A stretch of 46,636 nucleotides of DNA from Desulfococcaceae bacterium HSG8 (lineage in GTDB: Bacteria; Desulfobacterota; Desulfobacteria; Desulfobacterales; 4be13). Both the position numbers and the translations under genes were made by a program. Positions 5,210 through 46,269 of the stretch are shown piece after piece. The stretch covers positions 1 to 46,636 of the forward strand of contig JAUCGG010000017.1 of assembly GCA_030378015.1 (NCBI GenBank). Direction: 5' to 3'. The first letter of the stretch is position 1; each line of letters starts with the position of its first letter. Below the pieces are notes generated by a model. That model was not told the DNA's origin. It did not search any database and saw only the letters and a program-made list of their open reading frames with translations.

Positions 5210-5410
5210 GGCGCATTTACAACTTGGGGGAGTCCCGGAGGGACGACTGAAAATAGCCCGGCAATTTATTGCCTGGGCGGATATCCCCCGTTTTTTTCAG
5301 TCCCGGAGGGACTGAATGATCCGGAATACTCACCCGGCAATGAATTGCCGGCTATTTTCAGAAGTCCCTCCGGGGACTGAAAATCACTCCCCCGACTTAT
5401 AAATACGCCC
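5210..5410. mobile_element. Family D MITE (~200 bp). TIR gggcgcatttacaactt / aagtYataaatacgccc; internal gagtcccggagggacgactgaaaatagcccggcaat palindromes.
   Basis: Second copy at 27612-27845 is flanked by a 9-bp duplication, atccgtttt. Confidence 0.7.
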
Positions 5411-9575: not shown

Positions 9576-11548
9576 GTCAGGTCTTCTATTGTATAAGGCT
9601 TGGCGAGTGCCCCTGCGAAAGCGTATTTCCTGAAATCAGTTATTACCGGATCATTTGAATATCCGCTTGAAACAATGGCCCTGACATGAGGATCTGTTTT
9701 CGTAAGCGACCTGACAGTTTCCACGCCTCCGATCCCTTTTTTTATCGTCAGATCCAGTATGACAGCATCAAAAGGCTTTTCGGAGTCCGCGGCTCTTTTA
9801 TATAGTTCAATCGCCTCGGCACCGTCACAGGCAAGTTCGGTATCATATCCGATCATATCTAACATATGACTGGCAATATCCCTTATCATCTCCTCGTCAT
9901 CCATCACAAGAATTTTTCCCCTGTGTGCTGCCGGCTCTTCCCCGGGTTTCTTTTCGTGTTCCTGCTCTTTTTTCTCTTCAGTTTCTTTTTCATAAGAAGG
10001 AAGATATATGGTAAAGACAGTTCCGCTTCCCGCCTCGGATTCCACAGTTATGTGCCCCTCGTGTTTTCTGATAACTGACCAGGTTATTGTAAGTCCTAGT
10101 CCCATTCCTTTCTGTGTTCCCCTGTCCCCGGTCGAGAAATACGGATCAAAAATTCTGGTAAGATTTTCTTCCGAAATTCCGACACCCTGATCCCGGATGA
10201 TTATCTTCACATAATTCCCCTCTAAAAGCGGCAGACCTGTTCCCGATCCTATTTCCGTGTTTTCCGCGATCACAACAAGTGATCCGCACCCGGGCATAGA
10301 TTCAGACGCGTTGATAATCAGATTCCTGAGAGCCTGCCTTATCTGTACTTCGTCAAATTCGACACGCCGGAGATCAGGCTGTATGGAAAACTCACATTTG
10401 ACATCTGATCCCGACAGAACAACCTTTGTCGTTTCTCTTACTATATCAACGAGTGATCCGGCTTTTTTTACGGGTGTGCCGCCCATTGAAAATGTGATCA
10501 GTTGGCTGGTAAGGTCTTTTGCCTTCAAAGAGGCTGCTTCAGCCTTTTTCAGAAATCCGGGGCCTCTCGAATCAGGTTCCATATCCATTTCCGCCAGATT
10601 GATATAGCCCAGGATTGCAGATAAAAGATTGTTGAAATCATGTGCAATGCCGCCCGCGAGAATGCCCAGTGATTCAAGTTTCCTGGCCCTGATAACTTCC
10701 TCCTGCATTCTCTTTTTCCCGGTAATATCCCGCACGATGCCGGCTACATGCCATTTATCATTCATTTTTAAGGCTGAAACGGAAACTTCGACAGGGAACA
10801 CTGTCCCGTTCTTTCTGACAGCCTTCAGTTCAGTTGTATTTCCGGATGGAGGAATCTGCCCGGTTCTCTGGAATTCCTCAGACAATTTTCTGTAGGATTC
10901 ATGAAGTTCTGCCGGGATAAGAAGGGAATGCATCTCCTTTCCTTTTAATTCTTCAACATTGTAACCGAATATCTTTTCCGAGGCAGGATTCGAATATATG
11001 ACTTTCCCTTGGTCATCCAAAAGAATAATTGCATCGGCCGCTGCATTCATAATTGTTCCCAGCTTTTCCTCACTCTCACGCAGGGCCAGCTCTGTCTGTT
11101 TTCGCTCATGGATTTCCTGCTGAAGCCTCTGATTCTGTGTCTGCAACTGCATCTGCATTTTGCGCAGACTCAGATGGGTTCTGACACGAGCGAGAACTTC
11201 TTCTTCCTGGAACGGCTTGGTAATATAGTCCACCCCGCCAAGCTCGAAGGCCCTGACTTTGTCCCCGGTCTCATCAAGCGCGCTGATAAATATTATCGGA
11301 ATATCACGCGTGCGCTCTCCGGCTTTCAGACGGCGGCAGACTTCATAGCCGTCTGTTCCCGGCATCAGGATATCGAGCAGTATGAGATCAGGCAGCGATT
11401 TCTGAGCAACCTGGAATGCCAGTTCTCCGTTCAGCACCGGACGCACCTGATAGCCTTGCTCCGTCAATATCTGCATCAGTATATGCAGGTTTTCAGGGGT
11501 GTCATCCGCAATTAAAATATCGCTCTGTTCCGTGTCAGACTGAATCAT
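9545..11548 (-). CDS. Hybrid sensor histidine kinase/response regulator: N-terminal REC, coiled coil, PAS, HisKA, HATPase_c, C-terminal REC.
   Basis: REC (ILIADDTPEN...LILLDILMPGTDGYEVCRRLK). H-box GGIAHDFNNLLSAILGYINLA. HATPase (DQGVGI, GMGLGLTI). C-terminal REC (ILVMDDEEMIRD...AVILDLTI). First ATG at 11548 with aaaggaga RBS; the track start 11620 is TTG inside a repeat. Confidence 0.85.
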   Translation of the reverse strand: MIQSDTEQSDILIADDTPENLHILMQILTEQGYQVRPVLNGELAFQVAQKSLPDLILLDILMPGTDGYEVCRRLKAGERTRDIPIIFISALDETGDKVRAFELGGVDYITKPFQEEEVLARVRTHLSLRKMQMQLQTQNQRLQQEIHERKQTELALRESEEKLGTIMNAAADAIILLDDQGKVIYSNPASEKIFGYNVEELKGKEMHSLLIPAELHESYRKLSEEFQRTGQIPPSGNTTELKAVRKNGTVFPVEVSVSALKMNDKWHVAGIVRDITGKKRMQEEVIRARKLESLGILAGGIAHDFNNLLSAILGYINLAEMDMEPDSRGPGFLKKAEAASLKAKDLTSQLITFSMGGTPVKKAGSLVDIVRETTKVVLSGSDVKCEFSIQPDLRRVEFDEVQIRQALRNLIINASESMPGCGSLVVIAENTEIGSGTGLPLLEGNYVKIIIRDQGVGISEENLTRIFDPYFSTGDRGTQKGMGLGLTITWSVIRKHEGHITVESEAGSGTVFTIYLPSYEKETEEKKEQEHEKKPGEEPAAHRGKILVMDDEEMIRDIASHMLDMIGYDTELACDGAEAIELYKRAADSEKPFDAVILDLTIKKGIGGVETVRSLTKTDPHVRAIVSSGYSNDPVITDFRKYAFAGALAKPYTIEDLTDALSLVFSV

Positions 11549-11655: not shown

Positions 11656-11740
11656 CAGCAGGTCGAAAACTTTCCGATAACCCTTTGTGAACATCGGATT
11701 TCGGGTTAAAATTAAAAACATCCGTTTTTAATTTTTATGT
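11656..11740. repeat. Partial family E element (left arm).
   Basis: cagcaggtcgaaaactttccg...ggatttcgggttaaaattaaaaacatccgttttt. Confidence 0.55.
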
Positions 11741-11834
11741 GGAAGTATTTTGTGTTTAGGGATTTCTCAATAAATAATCTGCCCCGTCTGACCTTAATTT
11801 TAATCTTGCTCTTTATCTTTATCAAGCAGGAGAA

Positions 11835-11912
11835 GGAGCGAGAGCACAAGAGCAAGGGCAGGAGCAAGAGTAAGAGCAAGATACCGGGTATATTAATTTT
11901 GGGGAAATACCT
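11835..11912. repeat. Family H element, copy 2 (agcaag microsatellite + ataccgggtatattaattttggggaaatacc).
   Basis: Matches 205-290. Confidence 0.6.
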
Positions 11913-12024
11913 TACTTAAAGGTTTCCCGAAATTTTAGTTCTGATACGGAAAGCCTTGCTTATAAGGGATTTGCAGATCCGTCACTCCGCAGGAGCCGGT
12001 TTTAATTTATTTTCACAGCCTTTC

Positions 12025-12185
12025 TTATTTTAACCACGAAAGACACGAATTATATTCTTTTTCCGGTATCTTTCATATCAGCATAAAGGCAACTGACACT
12101 CCGGTTCGCAGTTCCGCCTTCGGCAACCGCGAACCGGAAAATGAAGGACGCTCTCTTTTTTTCGTGTGTTTCGTGGTTAAAAGGC
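12025..12185. mobile_element. MITE-like element with TIR ttttaaccacgaaagacacgaa / ttcgtgtgtttcgtggttaaaa and central hairpin ggttcgcagttccgccttcggcaaccgcgaacc.
   Basis: Inverted termini and central stem read directly. Confidence 0.6.
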
Positions 12186-13191: not shown

Positions 13192-15681
13192 ATGCCGGAA
13201 GAAAGAAGGGAAAGGGATCTGATACTGGCCCCCAATGAATACGCGTTCATCCTGGATGAAACCAAGGGAAATATTGTCAACTACGTGGGGCCGCATAAAA
13301 CAAGTCTGGCGAACACAGATCAGCCGGTTCTGTTCAATGATCAGACAAAGCGGTTTGACCGGTGTAACCTTGAAAAAGCCATCAAGCCCCACGCCATATC
13401 ACCCGAAGGATGGTATGTGGTGCTGAAAAATCCGGCCAGGGACGGAAAGCCCCCTACTTCCGGCACGGCAAACAGCCTCCCGGAACTGGATATCGGGCGA
13501 AAGGTCAATATTCCGGGCCCCGTATCCCTTGCGCCCTGGCCCGGACAGATGATCCGTGTCATCCAGGGACATAATTTACGTTCCAATCAGTATCTTATTG
13601 CACGGGTCTATGAGGAAGAGGCTGCAAGGATTAACTGGAAGAAAGCGGTGATCAAACCCCAGACAAGCTCAGTGGGCGAAGTATCGGACGGACCCGAGGA
13701 CGGCGTGAAGCCGGACAGGGATACACCGGATCTGACCATGGGAAAACTGCTGGTGATCCGAGGAATAGATGTCTCCTTTTATATTCCGCCCACAGGCATC
13801 GAGGTGGTTCCGGATCAGAACGGGCGTTATGCCAGGAATGCGGTAACCCTGGAGCGTCTGGAATACTGTATCCTGCTTGACGAGGATGGTAACAAACGCT
13901 ACATCCGGGGCCCCGCGGTGGTATTCCCGAGACCCACGGAGACCTTTGTGGAGAAGAACCGCTCCCGGAAATTCAAGGCTGTGGAACTGAACGAGATCAG
14001 CGGGTTGTACGTCAAAGTCATCGCTGCTTACGAAGAAGATGGCAGGGAATATAAGGAAGGCGAAGAGCTTTTTATCACCGGCAAAGAGCAGATGATCTAT
14101 TTCCCCCGTTCCGAACATGCGATTATCCGATACGGGGATCAGGAAGTCAACTACTCGGTGGCAATTCCCGCTGGCGAAGCCAGGTATGTGCTGAACAGGA
14201 TGTCAGGGCAGATCACGCTCCGAAAGGGGCCATGTATGCTCCTGCCAGACCCCCGCAAAGAAGTGATTGCCCGGCGGGTGATTGATCCCGGACTCGTGAA
14301 GCTCTGGTTCCCGGGAAATCATGAGGCACTGGAATATAACAGCCGGCTGATGAACATCACCCGGAAAGAAAAATCCGGGGAATTCGTCGAGGATCAGCAG
14401 GTCAAGAAAATGCTCAGGGATGAAGATGCTCAGACACAGGAGGGGCAGCGGACAACAGAGTTCTCGGGCGATCAGTTCACACGGAAACAGACCTTTTCCC
14501 GTCCCCGTACCGTTACCCTGGATACCAAATATGAAGGCGCGGTCTCCATCAATGTGTGGACAGGCTACGCGGTGCTGGTGATCAGCAAAACCGGGAACCG
14601 CAAGGTAATCGCAGGTCCCCAGACCTGCCTTCTCGAATATGATGAAACCCTGGAAACCGTCGAACTGTCAACCGGAACCCCGAAAACAGAGGATCATCTG
14701 ATTCAGACAGTATATCTGCGGGTGCTGCACAATAAGGTCTCGGATATTGTGGAAGCTGAAACCCGGGATCTGTGCCAGGTTCAGTTTGATGTGTCTTACC
14801 GGGTAAATTTCGAAGGCGAACCTGAGAAATGGTTCAATGTTGAGAATTACGTCAAATTCCTCACGGATCACATCCGTTCCATGCTGCGCCATGCCATCCG
14901 CCAGTATGGTATTGAAGAATTTTATACCAAAGCCATCAGCATTGTCCGGGATACTGTTCTGGGCCTGCCCGGGGAGGATGGAAAACGTCCCGGTGCATTG
15001 TTTGAAGAGAACAATATGCGTATCTACGATGTCGAAGTTCTGGATGTCATCATCGGAGATGAGGTTATTGATCAGCTTCTTGTCAGTTCCCAGCACACGA
15101 CAGTCAGGCAGACCCTGGAAATTGCATCAGAAAAGAAAAAGCTGGAAGTCACCGAGCAGAGGGAAAACATCCGGCAGGAGATCGCCAAAATCGAGGCTGC
15201 GACATCACAACTCATGATCCGCTTGGAGGAGGAAGACGTCCGGAACCGGATGGCCCCGGAGATGGCAAAAATAGAATCCGCGGCAGAGGCACAGAAAAGA
15301 AAGCTCGGGGCAAAACTGGCAGACCAGAAGACACTGGATCAGATTTATTCCTCGGAACTTGCCCGCGAAAAGGCCAAATATGATATGGGCCTGGATGTGA
15401 CCCGCCAGGAAATGGTTCAGCGGCTTGAGGAACTGAAAGCCGAGGTTCAGGCAGTAGTCAGCAAGGCAAAAGCTGTTTCTCCCCAGTTGGTGGCCGCGCT
15501 TCAGGATTTTTCGGATAAGGCCCTCGCGGAACGGATGGCTGAGGCAATGTCTCCCCTGGCAATCTTAGGGGGAAAGAGTGTTGCCGAAGTGTTCGGGAAT
15601 CTGCTCCGGGGAACGGTGCTGGAGAATGTTCTTGCCCTGTCTGAAACACATACTGCGCATGAAGATGACGCGTCTGAATAA
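13192..15681 (+). CDS. Major vault protein (MVP)-like protein, 829 aa.
   Basis: ATG with strong RBS (aaggagagcaaaATG). N-terminus ILAPNEYAFILDETKGNIVNYVGPHKTSLANTDQPVLF aligns by eye with the start of vertebrate MVP ([38 protein letters not shown], recalled from memory). Total length is close to MVP (~860-890 aa). The C-terminal ~180 aa are a Glu/Lys/Ala-rich coiled coil (IAKIEAATSQLMIRLEEEDV...AEAQKRKLGAKLADQKTLDQIY...LEELKAEVQAVVSKAKA), like the MVP cap-helix. Confidence 0.7.
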   Translation: MPEERRERDLILAPNEYAFILDETKGNIVNYVGPHKTSLANTDQPVLFNDQTKRFDRCNLEKAIKPHAISPEGWYVVLKNPARDGKPPTSGTANSLPELDIGRKVNIPGPVSLAPWPGQMIRVIQGHNLRSNQYLIARVYEEEAARINWKKAVIKPQTSSVGEVSDGPEDGVKPDRDTPDLTMGKLLVIRGIDVSFYIPPTGIEVVPDQNGRYARNAVTLERLEYCILLDEDGNKRYIRGPAVVFPRPTETFVEKNRSRKFKAVELNEISGLYVKVIAAYEEDGREYKEGEELFITGKEQMIYFPRSEHAIIRYGDQEVNYSVAIPAGEARYVLNRMSGQITLRKGPCMLLPDPRKEVIARRVIDPGLVKLWFPGNHEALEYNSRLMNITRKEKSGEFVEDQQVKKMLRDEDAQTQEGQRTTEFSGDQFTRKQTFSRPRTVTLDTKYEGAVSINVWTGYAVLVISKTGNRKVIAGPQTCLLEYDETLETVELSTGTPKTEDHLIQTVYLRVLHNKVSDIVEAETRDLCQVQFDVSYRVNFEGEPEKWFNVENYVKFLTDHIRSMLRHAIRQYGIEEFYTKAISIVRDTVLGLPGEDGKRPGALFEENNMRIYDVEVLDVIIGDEVIDQLLVSSQHTTVRQTLEIASEKKKLEVTEQRENIRQEIAKIEAATSQLMIRLEEEDVRNRMAPEMAKIESAAEAQKRKLGAKLADQKTLDQIYSSELAREKAKYDMGLDVTRQEMVQRLEELKAEVQAVVSKAKAVSPQLVAALQDFSDKALAERMAEAMSPLAILGGKSVAEVFGNLLRGTVLENVLALSETHTAHEDDASE

Positions 15682-15804
15682 TCCGCTATGCGAAGACCTG
15701 CGAGGTTTTGAAAACGACTCGACAGAGCTCGCCGAAGTCCTCGCAGGTCTGGAACTCTCAGGATAACTTGCACATCGTGTTAAGGTAAGAAAGGAAAGAA
15801 TAAA

Positions 15805-16011
15805 ATGAAATGGCAGGAAATTCGTACATATTATCCGCAACAGTGGCTCCTTATAGAACTGGAGCAGATCGCTGTTGTTGACACTTTTGCGGATTCCCTA
15901 TCCATTACGAACCTCAATGTATATGTCGGCGGGAAGGATTTGCAGAACACAGAAGGAGAGGAATTCATATCATTTCCTATAAATATCATCCCTTTGAAAT
16001 TCTTTCGCTGA
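15805..16011 (+). CDS. Small hypothetical protein (68 aa) immediately downstream of the MVP-like gene.
   Basis: ATG preceded by gaaaggaaagaataaaATG. No recognisable motifs. Could be co-transcribed with the MVP-like gene. Confidence 0.3.
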   Translation: MKWQEIRTYYPQQWLLIELEQIAVVDTFADSLSITNLNVYVGGKDLQNTEGEEFISFPINIIPLKFFR

Positions 16012-16059
16012 TAGAAAGATGCTTTGCTTGGTGCGCTTCAGCGTTCAGCGTACTTTGGC

Positions 16060-16290
16060 TTTCAGCCGGCGCAAACCGATATAAAAAATATCAGATTTCG
16101 CTTGACAACAAACCCTGGTTATGTCAGGGAAACAGAAACAGCTATCAGGAAATACACGGAATTATGAATTAAGTAAAAAAATAACTGAAGTTATCAGATA
16201 AAATTCAGATCAGAACAGTTTGCGTTAATATTACATGCTGTTCCGGTATATTATAGGTTCGGTTCGGATTTTCCGATAAAAGATTAAGGT
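16060..16290 (+). promoter_or_regulatory. Conserved ~165-bp noncoding leader upstream of DUF2887 paralog 1. Contains ttgacaac and an aatacacggaattatgaat core. Duplicated at 17265-17440.
   Basis: ~85% identity between the two copies by eye (gatataaaaaatatcagatttYgcttgacaac...agctatcaggaaatacacggaattatgaat.aagtaaaaa.ataactgaRgttatcagata). Confidence 0.45.
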
Positions 16291-17093
16291 TATGAAAACA
16301 GATGCCTTATTTTACATGCTTTTCCGACTCTCCCCGGAGCCTGTTCCGGCTTGTTAAGCTGAATCTGCAGGGAAAGTATGCTTTCGAGAGCATCACCGTC
16401 AAAACCACCGGAAAACGGTTCGACGGTTTTATGAAACGGACAGACGGCGAAGGACCGAACGTGTTCGTCGAAATTCAGGGCTACGACGATAACACGATTT
16501 ACTGGCGGTCTTTCCGTGAAGTATGTATGTGGTACGAGGAGAATGACAGCAGCAGACCGTTTATCCTGGTTATTCTTTTCACTGATGAAAAATATGATCC
16601 CGACAACCGTATGCTGTCTTGCAGACCTCCGTGCCGGCTGATCCGGAAAAATCTCGCAGACTGTCTGAAAGGGATAGGAAAGAAGGCGGGCGTGCTGACC
16701 GTTCTGAAACCGTTACTTCTTTCGGACAGCAAAAAAGACAGGGAGAAGCTGCCGAAGCTTGTTCCGCAGTGGGAGGAAGAAATCCGCTCCCCTGAACTGT
16801 CGGAACATGAAACAAAGGAAATGACAGAACTACTGATTTATGCGATTATGCAAAGATTCTCAGATCTTAATTTGGAAGAGGTACAGAAAATGATACAATT
16901 AACACCGCTTGACCAGACCGTTGCCGGTCAGGAGCTTATTCAGATAGGGATGGATAAAGGCGAAAAGAAGACTCAGGAAAAAACTGCCCGGAGCCTGCTT
17001 TCAATGGGATTGCTGACCCCGGCCCAGATTTCTCAGGCTACCGGGTTAAGCATAAAGGAAGTTAAAGGCCTTAAAAATTCGATAAAGCAATAA
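16291..17093 (+). pseudogene. DUF2887/Rpn-family (PD-(D/E)XK nuclease-like) protein, paralog 1. A 1-nt deletion near codon 16 shifts the frame relative to paralog 2.
   Basis: atgaaaacagatgcc... encodes MKTDALFYMLFRLSPEPVPAC-stop. The conserved body (KLNLQGKYAFESITVKTTGKRFDGFMKRTDGEGPNVFVEIQGYDD...) continues in the +1 frame from the internal ATG at 16302. Compare ctctccccgg here with ctctcgccccgg in copy 2. Could be a sequencing error. Confidence 0.55.
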
Positions 17094-17264
17094 AATCTGC
17101 TGGTTAATAATCTGATGCCCGAAAATGCCTTAAACAGAAAGGCTGGTGATGAGATAAATTCTAAAATAGCTGAAAATAAATAAAGTTTCGCGTTAAAGTA
17201 GTTATCGTCCAAACTAAAAACCGCCAATTTTCAAATCGCAGGACGATACTGACGGAGGCGCACC

Positions 17265-17473
17265 GAAGAGCGGGCGCGCAAACGGATATAAAAAATATCA
17301 GATTTTGCTTGACAACAGACTCTGTCTGTGTCAGGGGAATCGGGAACAGCTATCAGGAAATACACGGAATTATGAATCAAGTAAAAATAACTGAGGTTAT
17401 CAGATAGATAAAATTCGGATCAGAGCAGTTTGCCTGAGTGAAAACCCCGATATTTAATACCCGGCAGCAAATT
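17265..17473 (+). promoter_or_regulatory. Second copy of the conserved leader upstream of DUF2887 paralog 2.
   Basis: See 16060-16290. Confidence 0.45.
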
Positions 17474-18277
17474 ATGAAAACAGATGCGTTATTTTACAGA
17501 CTGTTCCGACTCTCGCCCCGGAGCCTGTTCCGGCTTGTTAAGCTGAATCTGCAGGGGAAGTATGCTTTCGAGAGCATCACCGTCAAAACCACCGAAAAAC
17601 GGTTCGACGGTTTTATGAAACGCACGGACGGCGAGGGACCGAACGTGTTCGTCGAAATCCAGGGCTATGATGACGACACGATTTACTGGCGTTCATTCCG
17701 CGAGGTATGCATATGGTACGAGGAAAACAAAAGCAACAGACCGTTCATATTGATCGTTCTTTTTGTTGACGGTAAATATGATCCCGACAACCGTATGCTT
17801 TCGCCCAGACCTCCGTGCCGGCTGATCCGTAAGAATCTTGCAGACTGTCTGAAAGGGATAGGAAAAAAGGCTGGCGTACTGACCGTGCTGAAGCCGCTGC
17901 TTCTTTCGGACAGCAAAAAAGACAGGGAGAAGCTGCCGGAGCTTGTGCCCCGATGGGAGGAAGAAGTCCGCGCCCTTGAACTGCCGGAACATGAGACAGA
18001 CGAACTGACAGAACTGCTGCTATATGCCATTGTGCAGCGGTTCCGGAAACTTACCATGGAAGAGGTGAAAAAAATGATACAGTTGACACCGATAGATCAG
18101 ACTGTTGTCGGTCAGGAGCTTATTCAGATAGGGATGGATAAAGGCGAAAAGAAGACTCAGAAAAAAACTGCCCGAAGCCTGCTTTCAATGGGATTGCTGA
18201 CCCCGGCCCAGATTTCTCAGGCTACCGGGTTAAGCATAAAGGAAGTTAAAGGTCTTAAAAATTCGATAAAACAATAA
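17474..18277 (+). CDS. DUF2887/Rpn-family (PD-(D/E)XK nuclease-like, putative transposase/recombination-promoting nuclease) protein, paralog 2, intact (267 aa).
   Basis: MKTDALFYRLFRLSPRSLFRLVKLNLQGKYAFESITVKTTEKRFDGFMKRTDGEGPNVFVEIQGYDDDTIYWRSFREVCIWY matches the cyanobacterial-type DUF2887 N-terminal pattern (TDKLFYRLF...FQSVEVKQTAFRIDGVF...PVYFVEVQFQKD...). C-terminal IQLTPIDQTVVGQELIQIGMDKGEKKTQKK...LLSMGLLTPAQISQATGLSIKEVKGL resembles the DUF4351 tail. The track start 17438 is upstream; the conserved Met is at 17474. Confidence 0.7.
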   Translation: MKTDALFYRLFRLSPRSLFRLVKLNLQGKYAFESITVKTTEKRFDGFMKRTDGEGPNVFVEIQGYDDDTIYWRSFREVCIWYEENKSNRPFILIVLFVDGKYDPDNRMLSPRPPCRLIRKNLADCLKGIGKKAGVLTVLKPLLLSDSKKDREKLPELVPRWEEEVRALELPEHETDELTELLLYAIVQRFRKLTMEEVKKMIQLTPIDQTVVGQELIQIGMDKGEKKTQKKTARSLLSMGLLTPAQISQATGLSIKEVKGLKNSIKQ

Positions 18278-18289
18278 AGCCGGATATCT

Positions 18290-18440
18290 TTCCTCCGCTC
18301 GTTCGGACTCTCGGAACATCAGACGAACTGACAGAACTGCTATTATATGCTGTTGTGCAGCGGTTTCGGAAACTTTTGCTGGAGGAGAAAATGATACAGT
18401 TAATCCCGATAGACCAGACTGTTGTCGGTCAGCATGTAGT
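18290..18440 (+). pseudogene. Orphan fragment of a DUF2887 paralog C-terminal region (ELTELLLYAVVQRFRKL...MIQLIPIDQTVVGQ).
   Basis: DNA matches 17995-18125 with an internal deletion. No start codon. Confidence 0.6.
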
Positions 18441-18562
18441 AGGTTGGGGTTCTTTCCTCAACAACCTGCATGCTACATGCTGTATGAAAAAATTCTTGCA
18501 TATTACATGCTGTTCCGGTATATCATAGGTTCGGTTCGGATTTTCTGATAAAAGATAAGATT

Positions 18563-19364
18563 ATGAAAACAGATGCGTTATTTTACAGACTGTTCCGACT
18601 CTCTCCCCGGAGCCTGTTCCGGCTTGTTAAGCTGAATCTGCAGGGGAAGTATGCTTTTGAGAGCATAACCGTCAAAACAACAGAAAAACGATTCGACGGT
18701 TTTATGAAACGGACGGACGGCGAAGGACCGAACGTGTTCGTCGAAATCCAGGGCTACGATTTACTGGCGGTCTTTCCGCGAAGTATGCATGTGGTACGAG
18801 GAGAATGACAGCAGCAGACCGTTTGTCCTGGTTGTTCTTTTCACTGATGAAAAATATGATCCCGACAACCGTATGCTGTCATGCAGACCTCCGTGCCGGC
18901 TGATCCGTAAAAATCTCGCAGACTGTCTGAAAGGAATAGGAAAACACGCTGGTGTGCTGGCCGTCCTGAAGCCGCTGATTCTTTCGGACAGCAAAAAAGA
19001 CCGGGCAAGGTTGCCGGAGCTTGCGCCGCAGTGGGAGGAAGAAGTCCGATCCCTTGATCTGCCGGAACATGAAACAAAGGAAGTGACAGAACTGCTCGTT
19101 TATGCAGTTATGCAAAGATTCTCAGACCTTAGTTTGGAAGAGGTGAAAAAAATGATACAGTTAACCCCCCTTGATAAGACCGTCGCCGGCCAGGAGCTTA
19201 TTCTGATAGGGGTAGAAAAGGGAGAGATGATTGGGAAAATTCAGACAATACAGCATGTTTTGAAACGCCCGGTCTCTTCCAGAGAAAAGCTTCTGCCAAA
19301 AGATATTTATGAACTGAAAACAATACTTGGAAAATTGGAATCTGCAATGGACATGATGAGATAA
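18563..19364 (+). pseudogene. DUF2887/Rpn-family paralog 3, disrupted by an 11-nt deletion (frameshift at ~18768), with a divergent C-terminal extension.
   Basis: ggctacgat|ttactggcgg here versus ggctacgacgataacacgatttactggcgg in copy 1. The track splits it into 18563..18808 and 18789..19364. Confidence 0.7.
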
Positions 19365-19637
19365 ATTCTGAAATAGCTGAAAATAAATAAAGTTTCGCGT
19401 TAAAGTAGTTATCGTCCAAACTAAAAACCGCCAATTTTTAACCATAGGACGATGCTGACAGAGACGCGCCCGTCCGGGCGCGGCTCTTGTTTGCGTTCTA
19501 TGGGGGGTGCTTGGCGGTACCTTAGTTTGGGCGCAGATACAGGGTCTGCGCCCTTTTTTTGTGCTTTTTTTCAGGTATCACTTTCCGTTTTTATATTAAC
19601 CGAAATCTTTTTAACCCAAAAAGGAGAAAACAGAAAA

Positions 19638-22600
19638 ATGACAAGAACAGCCAAAACCGTAACCATTTTAACCATTATGATTCTGTGTCTGTGCGGAATA
19701 CCCCTTCGGCAAGCTCAGGACAAGGCTTTCGCAGGTACACTGCCGGACACCGGGCAGACCAAATGCTACAACAACACCTCGGAAATCGCCTGCCCCGCAT
19801 CCGGCGAGGATTTCTACGGGCAGGATGCTCAGTACAGCACCAATCCCCGCTCATACACCAAGCTTCAGGGCGGCATAGTGGTACAGGATAACGTGACCGG
19901 GCTGATCTGGGAGGTGAAGACCGATGACGGATCTGTGCATGACAAGGACAACACCTACAATTGGGACGATGCACAGAGTGTGTTCATCGCCGCATTGAAC
20001 TCGGAGAAGTTCGGTGGGTATTCAGATTGGCGGTTACCCACGATTAAGGAATTGGGTTCCATTGTAAATTTGGAGCGGTATAACCCTACTATAGATACTA
20101 ATTATTTTCCTCATACGATATCCTCCCCTGATCCTAACACCCTAACTTCTGCTCAATATTGGTCATCGACTGATCGCCTCGGTACTTCTGATTCAGCATG
20201 GTCGATTACGTTTATTGATGGCAGTCGGGGGAATGTTGGTTCTAAGAAATATAAAGAAAATTATGTACGTGCTGTGCGAGGAACTAATAATTCGTCATTT
20301 AATTTTGTTGATAACGGCGATGGAACGGTTACTGATATCGGAACTGGCTTGATGTGGCAACAAGAGGCTTCTGGTTTAGTAGTAAGTTGGAAAGATGCTT
20401 TGGCTTACTGTGAGAACCTTTCTTATGCTGGGTACAATGACTGGCGATTGCCAAACAGAGGAGAACTCCTTTCTATAATGAACTACGGGAAATATGATTT
20501 AGCTATTGACGACAATTATTTTCCTAATATGATAGCACATTGGTATTGTTCTTCTACCAGTAATGTTAGTCAAACTGAAGACTATTGGAACGTCCACTCC
20601 AGTAATGGTGGAGATAGCTGTTATTACCCTAAAGCAGGAATCGGCTGTGTCCCGATTGCTGTCCGAGGCGGAGTAACGCCGCAGACTCATACACTGACCA
20701 CCAATATCGCCCCCGCAGTTGGCGGCAACACAATTTCCCGTTCTTCCGACAAATCCGCTTATGACCACAACGAAAGCGTAACCCTAACCGCAACCCCTGA
20801 CGACTGCTACAATTTCACCAACTGGTCAGGCGATTGCTCCGGGACATCTCCCACCTGCACCCTCACGATGGATTCGGACAAATCGGCCACGGCAAACTTC
20901 GCCATAAAAACATATTCGCTCACCGTCACTGCAAGCAACGGCAGCGTCACCAAAAGCCCCTCCGCATCAACCTACGACTGCGGAACCACTGTATCCCTTA
21001 CTGCCAACCCGAACACAGGTTACCACTTTGTCCGCTGGGAAGGCGATGTCTCCGGCACAAGCACATCCGCGTCCCTCACTATGACCGCAAACCGCAGTGT
21101 CACCGCCATATTCGAGGAAAATATCCCGGACACTTACACGCTTACAAAAACCGTTTCTCCCGCATCCGGAGGCTCGGTTTCCGCATCCCCCGACAAATCC
21201 GCCTATACTTCAGGCGAATCCGTAACCCTCACCGCCACCCCCGAAGCCTGTTATGACTTCACCGGATGGTCCGGCGCGTGTTCCGGAACGTCTTCCGCCT
21301 GTACCCTCACGATGGATTCGGACAAATCAGTCACGGCAAATTTTGCCATTAAAACCTGTTCCCTCAGTATCACCGCAGAAAACGGCACCGTGAGCAAAAG
21401 CCCGGATCAGGTATCTTATGACTGCGGAACAACAGTGCTGCTCACCGCATCCCCGAATTCAGGCTACAACTTCGATCATTGGGAAGGAGATGCCACAGGA
21501 ACGCAGACCACCGCCAGCCTCACCATGACAGAAGATATGAGCATCACAGCGGTGTTCGTATCAGGCAGTTATACAATTTCCGGGTATGTCAGGGATTCGG
21601 AGAATCAGGGCATCAGCGGTGTTACGCTGAATTTCAGCAATGACGGCGGCTCTGCAATCACGGACAGTTCGGGATTTTATACCCGACCCGTGAACAGCAA
21701 CTGGAGCGGCACGGTTACGCCGGACAAAACCTGCCATACCTTTGCGCCCTCGGACACGCCCTACAGCAATATCACTTCAAGCCAGTCCGATCAGAATTAT
21801 ACAGCAGCAACAGAAACTTACACCATTTCGGGATACATCAGGGATTCCTCGGCAAACAGCGGTGTCAGCGGCGTTACCCTGGATTTCAGCAACAGCGGCG
21901 GTTCAAGCAGCACGGACAGTTCCGGATTCTATTCGCATTCAGTGGATTGCGGCTGGAACGGCACGGTTACACCGAGTGCCAGTGCTTATACGTTTTCTCC
22001 CTCCAATCTTTCCTACGGCAGTGTCACGTCGGATATGTCCGGGCAGGATTATACGGCAGCACAGCAGGCCGTACCCAAAATCAGCTCGGACCCGGAATCC
22101 CTGACATTTTTTCAGTCCCGGTTCAGGAAAAAACGGACGGACATATTTGCAAAGCCGGAAGACAGTGCCAGACAAAAGACAAAACCGGAGAATCTGTTCA
22201 GCACCTTTTCCCGGAAAAATCTGCGCCTGTCCGAGAGGCAAAGCGATCTGCTTTTCAATTATGAGGCACTGGACACCACAGAAGATTCGGGAATCGTCAG
22301 GGTGAATGCAGACCTCCTGGAAACCGCGGACGTGCTGAATCTGAATCTGTCCGAAGATGCGGCTTACCCGGTTTTCAGAACCAGGACTGATGAACGATAT
22401 GACGGAAATTTCACATGGTACGGAAAAACTGAGGACAAAGCTTTCGGAAATGCGATTTTTGTGGTACAGAACAAGGAAGTGACCGGAACGATCCGAACAG
22501 GAGGAGAACTTTACGCGCTGAGACCTTTGGGACAGGGCCTTCACGCGCTCATCCGCCAGAACCCGGACAGCTTTCCCCCGGAACATCCGCCCGAATATGC

Positions 22601-24089
22601 GGAAGGAATGATCCCCGCGTCTTCCACGGGTTCCGAAAAACGCCATTCTGTTCGTTCCGACGACGGCTCCGTGATCACGGTTCTGGTTGCATACACCCCG
22701 GCTGCCGCAGGGTCATCGGGCAACATAAACGCGCTGATTCAGTTGGCGGTTGATGAGTCAAATCAGTCATACGAAAACAGCGGCATTTCCCCGAGACTGG
22801 AACTCGTGCATACCTACGAGGTAAATTACACCGAGTCCGGGGACTTCGGTATTGATCTGAATCGTTTCAGCGGAACCGGTGACGGGTACATGGAGGATGT
22901 TCATGACCTGCGGGACAACTACGCAGCGGACATAGCTGTGCTGATTATAAACCATACCCAGTATTGCGGGCTTGCATATCTCAATCTTTCCCTGAATCCC
23001 GCGCACGGCTTCGGCGTTGTATATTGGAACTGCGCCACAGGATATTACTCCTTCGCTCACGAAATCGGGCATATACAGAATGCCCGGCACAATCCCGAAA
23101 GAGATTCCTCCGTCTATCCCTATCCTTACGGACACGGTTATCTGAACGCGCCGCGAGACTGGAGAACCATCATGGCATACAACAGTTCCGCATGTCCGGG
23201 CGGATACTGTGAGAGAATCCGGTATTGGTCAAATCCTGATGTGAGATACGGCGGCGAAGTCACGGGAACCGCTTCCACCCATGATAATGCCCGTGTGCTG
23301 GATGAAACAGCAGTGGCTGTCTCGAATTTCCGGGTATCCGAATCCGGAACCACGCTCACAATTCGTAATATCGGCGGCGCGACACTCACCGTAAGCGCGG
23401 TGAGCGATGATCGGGACTGGCTCTCCGTGAGCGGCTATCCCGATACGCCATTCACCATTTCCCCAAGCGGCGACCAGACCGTAAACGCGGAGGTAAACTG
23501 GGGTTCGCTCGGCAGTTCCCAGCAGGAAGGGAGCATTACTATAGACTCGGACGATCCGGACACGCCCTCGCTCGTGATTCCGGTAACAGTGATCCCGGTT
23601 TCCGGGGATGAAATCGCGGTGCTGTCCGTGATACCGGATTACCGAAACATTGAGCCTTCAGGCGGCACAGGCACATTTATCACGGACAATATCGGAACCG
23701 GGAGCATGAGTTGGACAGCGGAAAGCAATGTCTCGTGGGTGACGATCACAGAAGGAAGCTCCGGCAGCAACTCCGGGACCGTGAAATTCGCCTGTCAGGC
23801 CAACAGCGGGTCCCAGGCACGGACCGGCAATATCACGATTACCACTCCCTCCGGGGAAAACAGCCCCCGGAGCGTGGAAATCATACAGAGCGTGATCGGA
23901 GATGTTGACTACAACGGAACCGTTGAACTGCGGGATGCCGTGCTGGCATTGAAAGTATCAGCAGGAAAGCAAGTTTACATCCTGTCCGCCTCGGAGTCAG
24001 GCTATGCCGCGATGGGTGTTGACGTGAACGGGGATGAGAAAATAGGGCAGGAAGAAGCGATTTATGTTTTGCAGATTATTGCAGAATAG
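19638..24089 (+). CDS. Secreted multidomain surface protein (1483 aa). Order: signal peptide, 2x DUF1566 (Lcl-C-terminal-like), 4x divergent InlB B-repeat-like domains, 2x carboxypeptidase-regulatory-like domains, metzincin-type zinc metalloprotease (Reprolysin_4/5-like), 2x BACON-like beta domains, C-terminal dockerin-like module.
   Basis: Start MTRTAKTVTILTIMILCLCGIPL with RBS aaaggagaaaacagaaaaATG. DUF1566 signatures (TGLIWEVKT...YSDWRLPTIKEL; TGLMWQQE...YNDWRLPNRGEL). Repeats of TLT..PA.GG.VS.SPDKSAY..GESVTLTATP..CY.FTGWSG. HEIGHIQNARHN at ~23064-23096 (HExxHxxxxxH). C-terminus GDVDYNGTVELRDAVLALKV...GVDVNGDEKIGQEEAIYVLQ is a duplicated Ca-binding dockerin-type segment. Confidence 0.8.
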   Translation: MTRTAKTVTILTIMILCLCGIPLRQAQDKAFAGTLPDTGQTKCYNNTSEIACPASGEDFYGQDAQYSTNPRSYTKLQGGIVVQDNVTGLIWEVKTDDGSVHDKDNTYNWDDAQSVFIAALNSEKFGGYSDWRLPTIKELGSIVNLERYNPTIDTNYFPHTISSPDPNTLTSAQYWSSTDRLGTSDSAWSITFIDGSRGNVGSKKYKENYVRAVRGTNNSSFNFVDNGDGTVTDIGTGLMWQQEASGLVVSWKDALAYCENLSYAGYNDWRLPNRGELLSIMNYGKYDLAIDDNYFPNMIAHWYCSSTSNVSQTEDYWNVHSSNGGDSCYYPKAGIGCVPIAVRGGVTPQTHTLTTNIAPAVGGNTISRSSDKSAYDHNESVTLTATPDDCYNFTNWSGDCSGTSPTCTLTMDSDKSATANFAIKTYSLTVTASNGSVTKSPSASTYDCGTTVSLTANPNTGYHFVRWEGDVSGTSTSASLTMTANRSVTAIFEENIPDTYTLTKTVSPASGGSVSASPDKSAYTSGESVTLTATPEACYDFTGWSGACSGTSSACTLTMDSDKSVTANFAIKTCSLSITAENGTVSKSPDQVSYDCGTTVLLTASPNSGYNFDHWEGDATGTQTTASLTMTEDMSITAVFVSGSYTISGYVRDSENQGISGVTLNFSNDGGSAITDSSGFYTRPVNSNWSGTVTPDKTCHTFAPSDTPYSNITSSQSDQNYTAATETYTISGYIRDSSANSGVSGVTLDFSNSGGSSSTDSSGFYSHSVDCGWNGTVTPSASAYTFSPSNLSYGSVTSDMSGQDYTAAQQAVPKISSDPESLTFFQSRFRKKRTDIFAKPEDSARQKTKPENLFSTFSRKNLRLSERQSDLLFNYEALDTTEDSGIVRVNADLLETADVLNLNLSEDAAYPVFRTRTDERYDGNFTWYGKTEDKAFGNAIFVVQNKEVTGTIRTGGELYALRPLGQGLHALIRQNPDSFPPEHPPEYAEGMIPASSTGSEKRHSVRSDDGSVITVLVAYTPAAAGSSGNINALIQLAVDESNQSYENSGISPRLELVHTYEVNYTESGDFGIDLNRFSGTGDGYMEDVHDLRDNYAADIAVLIINHTQYCGLAYLNLSLNPAHGFGVVYWNCATGYYSFAHEIGHIQNARHNPERDSSVYPYPYGHGYLNAPRDWRTIMAYNSSACPGGYCERIRYWSNPDVRYGGEVTGTASTHDNARVLDETAVAVSNFRVSESGTTLTIRNIGGATLTVSAVSDDRDWLSVSGYPDTPFTISPSGDQTVNAEVNWGSLGSSQQEGSITIDSDDPDTPSLVIPVTVIPVSGDEIAVLSVIPDYRNIEPSGGTGTFITDNIGTGSMSWTAESNVSWVTITEGSSGSNSGTVKFACQANSGSQARTGNITITTPSGENSPRSVEIIQSVIGDVDYNGTVELRDAVLALKVSAGKQVYILSASESGYAAMGVDVNGDEKIGQEEAIYVLQIIAE

Positions 24090-27543: not shown

Positions 27544-28275
27544 ATCAGCAGATCGAAAAATTTCCGGTTAAACAGTGGATTCCGGGTTAAAATTAAAAAA
27601 CATCCGTTTTGGGCGCATTTACAACTTGAGGGAGTCCCGGAGGGACGACTGAAAATAGCCCGGCAATTTATTGCCGGGGGCGAATGTCCCCGTTTTTCAG
27701 TCCCGCAGGACGAATGAAAAGCTTTTTTTCAGCCGTCCCTACGGGACGTGATGATCCGGAATACTCACCCGGCAATGAATTGCCGGGCTATTTTCAGTCG
27801 TCCTCCGGGACTGAAAATCACTCCCCTGACTTGTAAATACGCCCATCCGTTTTTTAATTAATTTTCCCCGGAATGACAGCTTTAAACTATTGTCATTCCG
27901 GGGAAAATCGGAAAACGGATGTTTTCCGATTTTAACGGGCGCATTCCCAAAAAGTAGGAAATTCTCGTTCCCAAGCTCCGTCCGCCTGGAATGCATCCTG
28001 AGAGGCTCTGCCTCGTTTTTTGTTTTAAAACAGACAAGTTAAGCGAAATATCCTGCAAGGCAGAGCCTTGCGGAATGCATTCCCAGGCAGAGCCTGGGAA
28101 CGAGTAAAAAATATCCGTTTTTTAATTTTCCCCGGAATGACAGCTTTAACCTATTGTCATTCCGGGGAAAATCGGAAAACGGATGTTTTCCGATTTTAAC
28201 CCGGAATCCACATTCCGGAAAAGCATCCTGATTTTCCCCGGAATGACAATTCGGGTAAACCACAAAATCCGTTAG
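27544..28275. mobile_element. Nested MITE cluster. A family E element is interrupted by a family D element (27612-27845) and a family F element (27945-28108), followed by more family E hairpins.
   Basis: Family E reads ...aaaaaacatccgtttt | family D | catccgttttttaattaattttccccggaatgaca. The 9-bp atccgtttt is duplicated on both sides of family D. Family F is inserted after ...ccgattttaac. Confidence 0.65.
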
Positions 28276-30085: not shown

Positions 30086-30415
30086 AAGCCTTTTCCTGCA
30101 ACGGAAAATCCCCCCGGCCCCCTTTACGAAAGGGGGAGGAATTCTACTATTATCAATTCGTAAATTAAATTCTCCCCCCTTTTTTAAAGGGGGGCCGGGG
30201 GGGATTTCCGCCGTAACAGCCTTTTCCTGCAACGAAAAATCCCCCCGGCCCCCTTTACAAAAAGGGGAGGAATTCTACTATTATCAATTCGTAAATTAAA
30301 TTCTCCCTCCTTTTTTAAAGGGGGCCGAGGGAGATTTCTGCCGTAACAGCCTTTTCCTGCAACGAAAAATCCCCCCGGCCCCCTTTACGAAAGGGGGAGG
30401 AATTCTACTAATTCC
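30085..30415. repeat. Tandem array of about 2.7 copies (period ~125 bp) of a family C variant (cttttcctgcaacgRaaaatccccccggccccctttacRaaaggggg aggaattctactattatcaattcgtaaattaaattctccc..ttttttaaaggggggccgRggg.gatttc.gccgtaacag). The last unit is truncated exactly at the stop codon of the 5059-aa gene.
   Basis: Units start at 30090, 30222 and 30343. The stop TAG of the giant gene (complement of cta 30408-30410) lies within the ctacta of the repeat. Confidence 0.7.
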
Positions 30416-45654: not shown

Positions 45655-45706
45655 AATAAAAAAAGCCGGTTTGCCTTTTTCTCAGGCAACCCGGCTTTCT
45701 CAATGA
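45655..45706 (-). terminator. Hairpin aaagccggtttgcc-tttttctca-ggcaacccggcttt preceded on the plus strand by aaaaaaa. Candidate rho-independent terminator for minus-strand transcription coming from the right.
   Basis: 13-bp stem with one mismatch. The plus-strand A-run gives a U-tract on the minus strand. If real, it insulates the giant gene's promoter region (45588-45650). Confidence 0.45.
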
Positions 45707-46269
45707 GACCCGTGGCTTTCCGTCCCTGCCTCACGGCAGGTTTGGCTTTATCAGGGAAAATATCTTCAATCCCCCGAAGGATGCACTATCCTCCGGGGAT
45801 TGCAGCGGAATTTTCAAATTTATCCTTTTCATAATAAATTCCCTCCCGAAAAATAATATACCCGGTGTATGCGGCTCTCCGGGTCTTTAAAAACCGCGGG
45901 TTATTGGGACACGGATAAACACGGATTTCATTACAAAATGATCCGTGTTCATCCGTGTCCTGAAAAATCGCGGGTTCTTTTTTGAGAATTCCTAAAATAA
46001 AATACAACTTCCGAACACTGAGTTGGAATTTCTGGATGCAGGGCTGAAAAGTAAGCGCACAGGGCGATTGCGAGAACCGATGCTTTTGTATTATACCGGT
46101 TGCGATTCGATGCGTATAAGAAATGGTATTCCGTGTGAATCCGAGCCGTTTGTTTATCCGAATCTTTCTGGCCGAAGATGACTATAATATAACTGAATCA
46201 CAATTCTATTGTGTATCATATGGGTTTGAATGTCAAGTTTTTTTATTTTTCACTTTTAAAACATAAGAA

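Follow-up and report, generated by a model that had tools for sequence, protein, structure and literature searches.

A tandem array of DUF2887 genes with a predicted Rpn-like design, and a duplicated half of a leader-type RNA, in Desulfococcaceae bacterium HSG8

Introduction

Are the broken copies in a tandem gene array merely decaying, or may they still encode something? The question is raised by an array of three genes of the DUF2887 family on a 46,636-bp contig of Desulfococcaceae bacterium HSG8, referred to here as the window, in which we mapped the repeated units by self-comparison and BLAST. An earlier note on this DNA had described a triplicated Rpn-like nuclease unit whose copies were in different stages of decay and shared a conserved leader and a conserved tail.

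The explanation that we favour, and that we regard as probable when taken as a whole, is an Rpn-like array that has grown by direct duplication, with the tail as a bystander. Each DUF2887 gene would encode a long nuclease (L), and an internal Shine-Dalgarno (SD) sequence and ATG at Met201 would give a small C-terminal protein (S) of 67-70 amino acids, which may bind and restrain its cognate L by analogy with RpnS. Two small recent deletions would have broken the L frame in copy 1 and in copy 3, with all three S frames left open. Copies described as decayed can then be read as a dead long frame with an open small frame, as the data presented here suggest. Such a reading would extend the genes-within-genes logic of Rpn to a separate family, DUF2887, including the internal start, the repeat hinge, the detachable modules and the duplication arrays.

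Rpn (YhgA-like) proteins correspond to COG5464, TIGR01784 and PF04754, and RpnA_S is represented by the crystal structure 7TH0. An internal initiation site in rpn genes yields RpnS, and four-residue repeats that begin 8-20 residues after this start tune the specificity between the small and long forms (Zhong et al. 2023, PMC10327210). The same study reported that RpnS is also encoded as a separate downstream gene, that rpn arrays, which are "generated by tandem direct duplications", have neither terminal inverted repeats nor target-site duplications, and that Rpn has toxin-antitoxin and anti-phage functions. The toxin-antitoxin-type biology proposed here matches the kind described in 2023, and the array itself is unsurprising to a specialist.

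Three head-to-tail DUF2887 genes, one of them intact

Three homologous units lie head to tail across 16069-19470, with the DUF2887 genes at 16292-19364 (Table 1), as the earlier note had said. Pairwise alignment gave nucleotide identities of 84.5% over 1033 nt for units 1 and 2, 88.7% over 735 nt for units 1 and 3, and 85.0% over 674 nt for units 2 and 3 (BLAST E = 0 in each case). All three open reading frames (ORFs) match the Pfam family PF11103, DUF2887, whose gathering threshold is 24.1 bits: copy 2 reaches 104.6 bits and copy 1 92.0 bits, and copy 3 is matched in two halves, at 53.3 and 23.5 bits. Copy 2 had been called intact and is so, matching the profile from end to end (1-200/200).

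The other two copies each carry a lesion. The frameshift reported in copy 1 is present, although its size differs from the single nucleotide at codon 16 that had been given: in the alignment, 2 nt are gone at codons 15-16 (CTCTC[GC]CCCGG). An ATG at 16302 in the shifted frame leaves a 263-aa ORF open, which NCBI annotates as a protein (P0002) and which is without the conserved N-terminal MKTDALFY..P motif. The 11-nt deletion in copy 3, also noted before, sits between two ACGA repeats and shifts the frame; a 191-aa ORF remains open downstream of it, and the C-terminus of this copy diverges from position 19222 onwards. The headless fragment that had been placed between copies 2 and 3 is found there, is 79% identical to copy 2, contains indels and is cut at the VGQ junction.

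The flanks of the units form a mosaic, and self-comparison, BLAST and alignment found no leader or tail common to all three units, in contrast to the shared 5' leader and 3' tail that the earlier note had assigned to every unit. Leader A is confined to units 1 and 2 and leader B to units 1 and 3, and the tail (17147-17264 and 19354-19470; 91.5% identical by BLAST) follows only copies 1 and 3.

A conserved internal start and a small C-terminal module

Among the features behind the Rpn-like reading is an internal methionine. Met201 is invariant in 114 of 114 homologues, and in 38 of the 39 full-length genes from independent loci it is preceded by a canonical SD sequence in the motif AAGGAGGTG-N4-6-ATG. 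The codon for Glu-197, which falls in this stretch, is GAG in 37 of 37 genes, whereas GAG makes up only 42% of all Glu codons in the same ORFs. In the window, the motif GAAGAGGT(G/A)-N6-ATG stands at 16890, 18074 and 19152; the internal SD sequence and ATG are intact, and the C-terminal module is open, in all three copies. Even the headless fragment keeps GGAGGAG-N4-ATG at 18391.

Two types of module follow this start. Type A, in copies 1 and 2, is helix-turn-helix-like (HTH-like; ...KTARxLLSMGLLTPAQISQATGLSIKEVKxL), and type B, in copy 3, has the pattern GELIGxIQxxQxxLKR...LESxL. Across the family, four-residue repeats (GKxE, EKKG, GEKR, GIEQ and REEG) directly follow the hinge ...MIQLTPLDQTVAGQELIQIG, about 20 residues past Met201, and their number varies among tandem paralogues, with 2, 6 and 4 repeats at one Desulfonema magnum locus (L003) and 3 vs 4 at another (L005).

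The small module also occurs by itself. Stand-alone small ORFs lie 3' of full-length genes in Desulfobacterales HSG2 (L001) and at loci L010, L020 and L023, and comparable downstream pieces occur at L007, L010, L020, L022 and L023. Four in HSG2 are intact (10802-11029, 11686-11928, 12015-12176 and 16704-16919) and comprise both module types, type B being found at the first, third and fourth of these positions; they begin at the invariant Met, and some keep an SD sequence of their own. The only separate small-module gene in the window is a truncated remnant (ATG 18391). Taken together, the sequence comparisons suggest that the DUF2887 family shares the internal-start and small-module design of Rpn.

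Two loci on the D. magnum chromosome (L003, 4737-7906; L005, 6001-8072) hold tandem DUF2887 paralogues that differ mainly in repeat number; the repeats are of the REEG/EKKG type at the former and EKKG at the latter.

Relation to Rpn nucleases and points that weigh against it

At the level of the fold, the DUF2887 proteins belong with the PD-(D/E)XK superfamily: the alpha-beta-beta-beta-alpha-beta core is predicted, and the acidic residues are conserved, with D45, E61 and Q63 (the D...ExQ core) invariant across the 114 homologues. D4 and P15 at the N-terminus are invariant in the family as well. The copies are putative nucleases. The D...ExQ core aligns with SYSD...LIEHQ of Escherichia coli RpnA, in a profile comparison that is itself not significant (E 0.22).

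The likeness to the Rpn L/S system extends over several features, namely an N-terminal PD-(D/E)XK domain with the D...ExQ core joined to a small helical or HTH-like C-terminal domain, a conserved internal SD sequence and ATG at the start of this C-terminal domain, four-residue repeats that vary in number and lie shortly beyond the internal Met, small modules encoded separately downstream in relatives, and tandem arrays formed by direct duplication without terminal inverted repeats or target-site duplications. Homologues are moreover annotated as COG5464 (YdaD) or Rpn family, under source names such as 'Rpn family ... nuclease/putative transposase', 'predicted transposase YdaD' and 'TIGR01784 family'. 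Because the DUF2887 family shows the features described by Zhong et al. 2023, we file the array as one that probably works like an Rpn L/S system, in which a toxin-antitoxin or defence role would follow by analogy. The differences are that DUF2887 is PF11103 and not PF04754, that two alternative C-terminal module types occur inside one array, and that no obvious defence island surrounds it.

Several points weigh against this reading. The Rpn family model TIGR01784 of NCBIfam is matched with an E-value of 1.4e-11 but at 44.8 bits, below its curated cut-off of 52.1; PF04754 (Transposase_31) has no match in the DUF2887 copies, whereas E. coli RpnA matches it at 305.9 bits; and hhalign of the DUF2887 profile against RpnA gave the non-significant value cited above. 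Strict Rpn membership, taken as a score above the TIGR01784 or PF04754 cut-off, is therefore not found. Of the family assignment in the earlier note, DUF2887 stands by PF11103 and kinship with Rpn by the TIGR01784 E-value, and the curated Rpn cut-offs do not agree. No PADLOC model matches, the genes around the array form no recognisable defence island, and the literature searched on DUF2887 holds fold classifications only and no functional study. A profile search of the PDB found no relative, and Foldseek against the PDB returned only weak matches. Within the window, the SD sequence takes the weaker form GAAGAGGT, and the four-residue repeats (MDKG-EKKT-QKKT) are both short and degenerate. The GAG-GTG context of the Met could in principle reflect protein and codon constraints in place of an internal start. 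Copy 1 might still give a near full-length protein from its alternative ATG at 16302, and assembly errors could account for the frameshifts.

Old copies with single lesions

The alternative that survives best is a neutral birth and death of paralogues, by which the segmental duplication of a decaying gene would have left an internal Met, an SD sequence and C-terminal fragments that carry no toxin-antitoxin meaning. The state of the array speaks for it, with two of three copies frameshifted and the fragment truncated, and so do the many broken DUF2887 copies in HSG2 and on the metagenome contig DOMB18 (L049), the missing PADLOC match and the missing functional study. The divergence among the copies speaks against it: over codons 1-200, dN/dS is 0.145-0.19 at dS 0.32-0.52. 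Since dN/dS is about 0.15 at dS 0.3-0.5, the copies are old, have been under purifying selection through most of their history, and have received one recent lesion per damaged copy. The claim that the copies are in different stages of decay was in this respect overstated, given single lesions, an intact internal SD sequence and ATG, and an open C-terminal module throughout. The conservation of the SD sequence at synonymous sites before an invariant Met (38 of 39 genes), the HSG2 headless pieces, several of which are intact ORFs from the Met with their own SD sequence, and the point-by-point match with Rpn also argue against neutral decay, which we consider unlikely.

A second alternative is that errors of sequencing or assembly produced the frameshifts, perhaps the copy number too, and that all copies are intact in the organism. 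The window comes from a draft assembly, its source being uncultured or an enrichment, and tandem repeats of 85-89% identity are difficult to assemble. However, neither lesion falls within a homopolymer run, the 11-nt deletion has ACGA microhomology on its flanks, which is what real slippage would leave, and the copies differ by 11-15%, enough for unique assembly. Independent assemblies of HSG2 and DOMB18 hold comparable arrays with other frameshifts and truncations. In DOMB18 (L049), the order is a frameshifted copy, a small fragment, a leader-A core, half of the RNA described below, an intact copy, a type B fragment, the full RNA and the downstream gene; the same layout in an independent assembly argues against an assembly artefact. 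We rate this alternative as slightly less credible still than neutral decay.

Growth of the array by duplication and recombination

The preferred reading of an Rpn-like array places its growth in direct duplication, and the window preserves one of the junctions. Where the half tail ends, the sequence reads ...GAGCGGGCGCG on the left and CAAACGGATAT on the right. The left side corresponds to the full leader RNA (...GTCCGGGCGCGGCTC) and the right side to what stands upstream of leader A in unit 1 (...CAGCCGGCGCAAACCGATAT), so that the crossover lies in a GGCGC microhomology inside the leader RNA. The duplication would have joined CGGGCGCG in the leader-RNA gene to CCGGCGCA upstream of leader A and copied about 1.2 kb, comprising the leaders, the ORF and the 5' half of the RNA.

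A second kind of exchange seems to have acted at the hinge. The headless fragment ends, and the module type switches from A to B, at the same VGQ/GQELI stretch, and these shared endpoints point to this conserved stretch as a recombination site. Recombination at the hinge (...TPLDQTVAGQELI...) would have swapped or truncated the C-terminal modules, so that copies 1 and 2 now end in type A, copy 3 ends in type B and the fragment is cut at VGQ. This arrangement recalls the orphan arrays of Rhs and CdiA-CT polymorphic toxins, in which headless fragments with alternative C-termini, starting at a conserved hinge, stand behind a full-length gene. The DUF2887 headless pieces fit such displacement by recombination at a hinge; unlike in the Rhs and CdiA-CT systems, the variable module is a putative antitoxin or oligomerisation domain and not a toxin tip, and secretion and immunity genes are lacking.

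Patchy gene conversion would have followed the duplication. Identity along the ORFs ranges from 0.68 to 0.98 per 60 nt, and copies 1 and 2 agree at 97-98% over their final ~120 nt vs 84.5% overall, a patchiness that fits gene conversion. The HSG8 copies are 85-89% identical to one another vs 72-78% to any HSG2 copy; as they are mutually closest, either the duplication took place after the split from HSG2 or the copies have evolved in concert. The suggestion that the array arose by repeated unequal crossing-over is thus supported as far as duplication and recombination go, by the GGCGC junction and the mosaic identity. HSG2 carries a syntenic and much larger array (L001, 9088-12176 and 15381-16919) that holds three or more complete or nearly complete genes, several headless pieces and the four stand-alone small ORFs, together with a half leader RNA at 13689-13775 and a full copy at 17950-18150.

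That the units are an insertion sequence transposed repeatedly into one site is very improbable: homologues do bear the names 'predicted transposase YdaD' and 'putative transposase' and occur in many copies per genome, but the units have neither terminal inverted repeats nor target-site duplications at their ends (the only inverted repeat is at the fragment junction), their boundaries differ among leader A, leader B and tail, the junction lies at a 5-nt microhomology in the RNA gene, and Zhong et al. (PMC10327210) reached the same conclusion for rpn genes.

The right arm of the inverted repeat at the fragment junction duplicates the start of leader B (ACATGCTG), and the repeat resembles the scar of a fold-back or template-switch rearrangement. 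HSG8 has a second array (P0003/P0009) on a 34-kb contig. To the left of leader A, positions 15805-16069 (+) hold a 68-aa ORF and its 3' sequence, of which 15914-16069 is 74% identical to HSG2 L001 14365-14514; the latter lies upstream of the second HSG2 cluster, and the match marks a conserved left border of the array.

The tail is half of a widespread leader-type RNA

The tail repeat overlaps the stop codon of copy 3 and, at 98% identity over 88 nt, is more conserved than the ORFs. It had been taken for a part of the nuclease unit; what follows copy 3 is a complete leader-type RNA, and what follows copy 1 is half of one. The full RNA consists of a 5' hairpin, segment a, helices b, c and d, an apical hairpin and a terminator at 19529-19560, and folds at -85.5 kcal/mol with a z-score of -5.7 (half copy, z -0.8). 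The half copy ends at the duplication junction, ...CGGGCGCG followed by CAAACGG, and the family profile aligns its positions 17176-17273 with model positions 3-98.

The helices of this RNA covary, including three mutually exclusive pairings. Among 75 non-redundant sequences, helix c (ACCGCCAA/UUGGCGGU) is invariant and flanked by invariant loops, and in helix b all but one of the 8 positions show compensatory changes, the exception, beside helix c, varying almost only from A-U to G-U. In the HSG8-like clade (n=20), the nested structure of b, c, d, apical hairpin and terminator is 92.7% paired vs 80.2% after shuffling, with double-sided changes in 23 of 41 pairs and a covariation score of 0.448 vs 0.211 shuffled and about 0.1 with partners slid. 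The alternative helices covary too: a/a' is 77.9% paired vs 68.6% shuffled (a value reached in 0 of 500 shuffles), pairing between the 3' portion of the hairpin and the terminator 5' strand stands at 82%, and the apical 3' strand with the terminator 3' strand is 88.7% paired vs 32-70% when slid. Permutation across the 75 sequences supported the pairings 1:2, 2:3 and 3:4 and not 1:3, 2:4 or 1:4, and in prefix folding a-a' forms first and is later displaced. In HSG2 and DOMB18 the RNA occupies the corresponding position, two of its stems carry compensatory changes, and a left-half copy lies inside each array.

To survey its distribution we searched with invariant parts of the RNA joined by a variable gap, AACCGCCAATTT-N55-85-TTGGCGGTAC (a 22-nt signature from the window). 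The RNA was found in at least 120 metagenome contigs from many habitats, including the human gut, and had one close match in Phocaeicola massiliensis; its range runs from Bacteroidaceae to Desulfobacterales. No match was found in phages, and an exact 23-mer of the apical region had none in metagenomes. Among the matches listed, the loci have 27-57% GC and exactly one copy of the RNA each, the ORF that comes next shares the strand of the RNA in 106 of 109 and lies no more than 150 nt away in 82, and the proteins encoded there are mutually unrelated (43 clusters among 82). A -10-like box lies upstream of the RNA, which has its own terminator at the loci listed. Pfam matches of the downstream proteins include LRR, EcoRI methylase, MORN, EcsC/TerB, GIY-YIG and a secreted protease; many are signal-peptide proteins, and about half of the representatives have signal-peptide-like N-termini as read by eye. 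No functionally coherent gene set was seen downstream.

The organisation is that of attenuators and riboswitch platforms, such as the trp type with its 1:2, 2:3 and 3:4 pairings or the c-di-GMP type upstream of diverse genes. The RNA shares with these a -10-like box, a conserved core, mutually exclusive covarying helices, an intrinsic terminator and a same-strand gene directly downstream in 97% of the loci listed, so that a riboswitch- or attenuator-like structure is present. It differs from them in having no match in Rfam 15, no leader peptide that could be seen and downstream genes that share no function. Rfam 15 was searched over the whole window at gathering threshold with no match for the RNA, over 15700-19700 and 19375-19575 at E<=10 with terminator-like chance matches only, and over 14 and 4 homologous RNA loci with no family assigned. 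A literature search on the invariant strings returned unrelated papers only. If truly undescribed, the RNA is a candidate for a new cis-regulatory RNA class, and it raises the interest of the locus. As for the leader peptide, the sequences as read have no conserved start codon or frame.

Identity with the Bacteroides thetaiotaomicron 6S RNA was considered and ruled out, and the invariant strings did not appear in the portion covered of the small-RNA table from the paper on that RNA.

An ATG at 19452 opens a frame through the RNA (19452-19637, +) that is in frame with the start of the downstream gene at 19638, and because this frame is open into the gene, ORF finders report a 1545-aa ORF. The open frame through the RNA is probably coincidental.

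The RNA occurs independently of DUF2887. With the family profile, it was found in DUF2887 loci of only 3 lineages across 451 kb and was absent from 41 other loci, and none of the 120 RNA loci listed (772 kb) has a DUF2887 gene. A role of the tail as a functional partner of the nuclease, whether as RNA antitoxin or guide, attC-like site or 3' untranslated-region element, is suggested by its overlap with the copy 3 stop codon, its presence after two of three copies at high identity and its long hairpin, but is largely refuted by the mere truncated half behind copy 1, by its absence from those 41 loci and by at least 120 contigs in which it precedes unrelated same-strand genes with no DUF2887 nearby; we give it hardly any credence. 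Since the RNA is found independently of DUF2887, the tail is a duplicated piece of a neighbouring attenuator-like RNA. In the Rpn-like reading it would be a bystander: it is the promoter-proximal half, and the complete RNA stands before the secreted-protease gene.

The half copy may nevertheless have consequences for the array. In the lineage of HSG8, HSG2 and DOMB18, the Rpn-like array has gained a duplicated half of the RNA, and in DOMB18 L049 this half ends about 40 nt before the ATG of the intact gene. As half copies are without the terminator, they may act as promoters into the next unit, and the truncated RNA in the window would supply a promoter towards copy 2. The combined proposal, that the tail exposes a widespread attenuator- or riboswitch-like RNA set before hypervariable same-strand genes and that its terminator-less half may drive the only intact nuclease copy, is one that we put forward tentatively and with more doubt than conviction.

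Leaders A and B

The leader had been proposed to encode a small RNA or a regulatory site. Leader A gives no sign of a structured RNA, having no Rfam match (15700-19700, E<=10) and an ordinary folding stability (z-score -0.72). A 45-nt core, AAAAAATATCAGATTT-GCTTGACAACAGA with a short hairpin, is conserved in DOMB18 (L049, 1339-1383); the hairpin follows TTGACAAC, and its pairing is kept through changes on both sides. Given the GATAT-N5-ATATC palindrome and the four TATCAG motifs, leader A may possibly be a regulatory region bound by a protein. The two copies of leader B are 96% identical over 18500-18556.

A sigma-70 promoter in leader A was rejected as a candidate, the TTGACA being followed by no acceptable -10 box at 16-18 nt.

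Features and neighbourhood of the array

The coordinates of the features are collected in Table 1.

Table 1. Features of the DUF2887 array and its flanks in the window
Feature	Coordinates	Strand	Description
Leader A, copy 1	16069..16227	+	GATAT-N5-ATATC palindrome, TTGACAAC, short hairpin, four TATCAG-like motifs
Leader B, copy 1	16228..16291	+	Directly 5' of copy 1 ATG; weak sigma-70-like match 16225-16254
DUF2887 copy 1	16292..17093	+	2-nt deletion near 16332 shifts frame; type A (HTH-like) C-terminus
Internal ORF, copy 1	16890..17093	+	67 aa, predicted RpnS-like module type A; starts at invariant Met after GAAGAGGT
Half leader RNA (tail after copy 1)	17147..17273	+	Upstream region, 5' hairpin, segments a, b, c, d
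Leader A, copy 2	17276..17440	+	88-92% identical to leader A copy 1
DUF2887 copy 2	17474..18277	+	Intact, 267 aa; predicted PD-(D/E)XK domain and type A helical/HTH-like C-terminus
Internal ORF, copy 2	18074..18277	+	67 aa, predicted RpnS-like; GAGGTG-N6-ATG
Headless fragment	18294..18432	+	139 nt, about codons 165-213; between copies 2 and 3
Imperfect inverted repeat, 31 nt	18409..18503	.	At fragment/unit 3 junction; hairpin-like sub-threshold match (Rfam scan)
Leader B, copy 2	18500..18562	+	Upstream of copy 3
DUF2887 copy 3	18563..19364	+	11-nt deletion near 18757; type B C-terminus (GEMIGKIQ...)
Internal ORF, copy 3	19152..19364	+	70 aa, predicted RpnS-like module type B; GAGGTG-N6-ATG
Full leader RNA	19382..19567	+	About 185 nt; family profile E 1.3e-36
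Secreted multidomain protein gene	19638..24089	+	Lcl_C, Flg_new_2, M12 metallopeptidase, BACON; downstream of full RNA

Homologues of the secreted multidomain protein gene follow the RNA in HSG2 and DOMB18 as well. Directly 5' of the array, 13192-15681 (+) encodes an 829-aa bacterial MVP-like protein, in which the shoulder and repeat domains of the major vault protein occur together with an SPFH/Band 7 domain (PF11978, PF17795 and PF01145).

Other RNA elements are found farther away in the window. A c-di-GMP-I-GGC riboswitch aptamer at 45681-45755 (-), scoring 72.7 bits against a gathering score of 59, lies immediately upstream of a giant 5059-aa ORF (30408-45587, -). Three Acido-Lenti-1 RNA motifs score above the gathering score, at 5231-5276 (-), 27633-27678 (-) and 27768-27812 (+), and the last two face each other near 27.7 kb, with about 90 nt between them.

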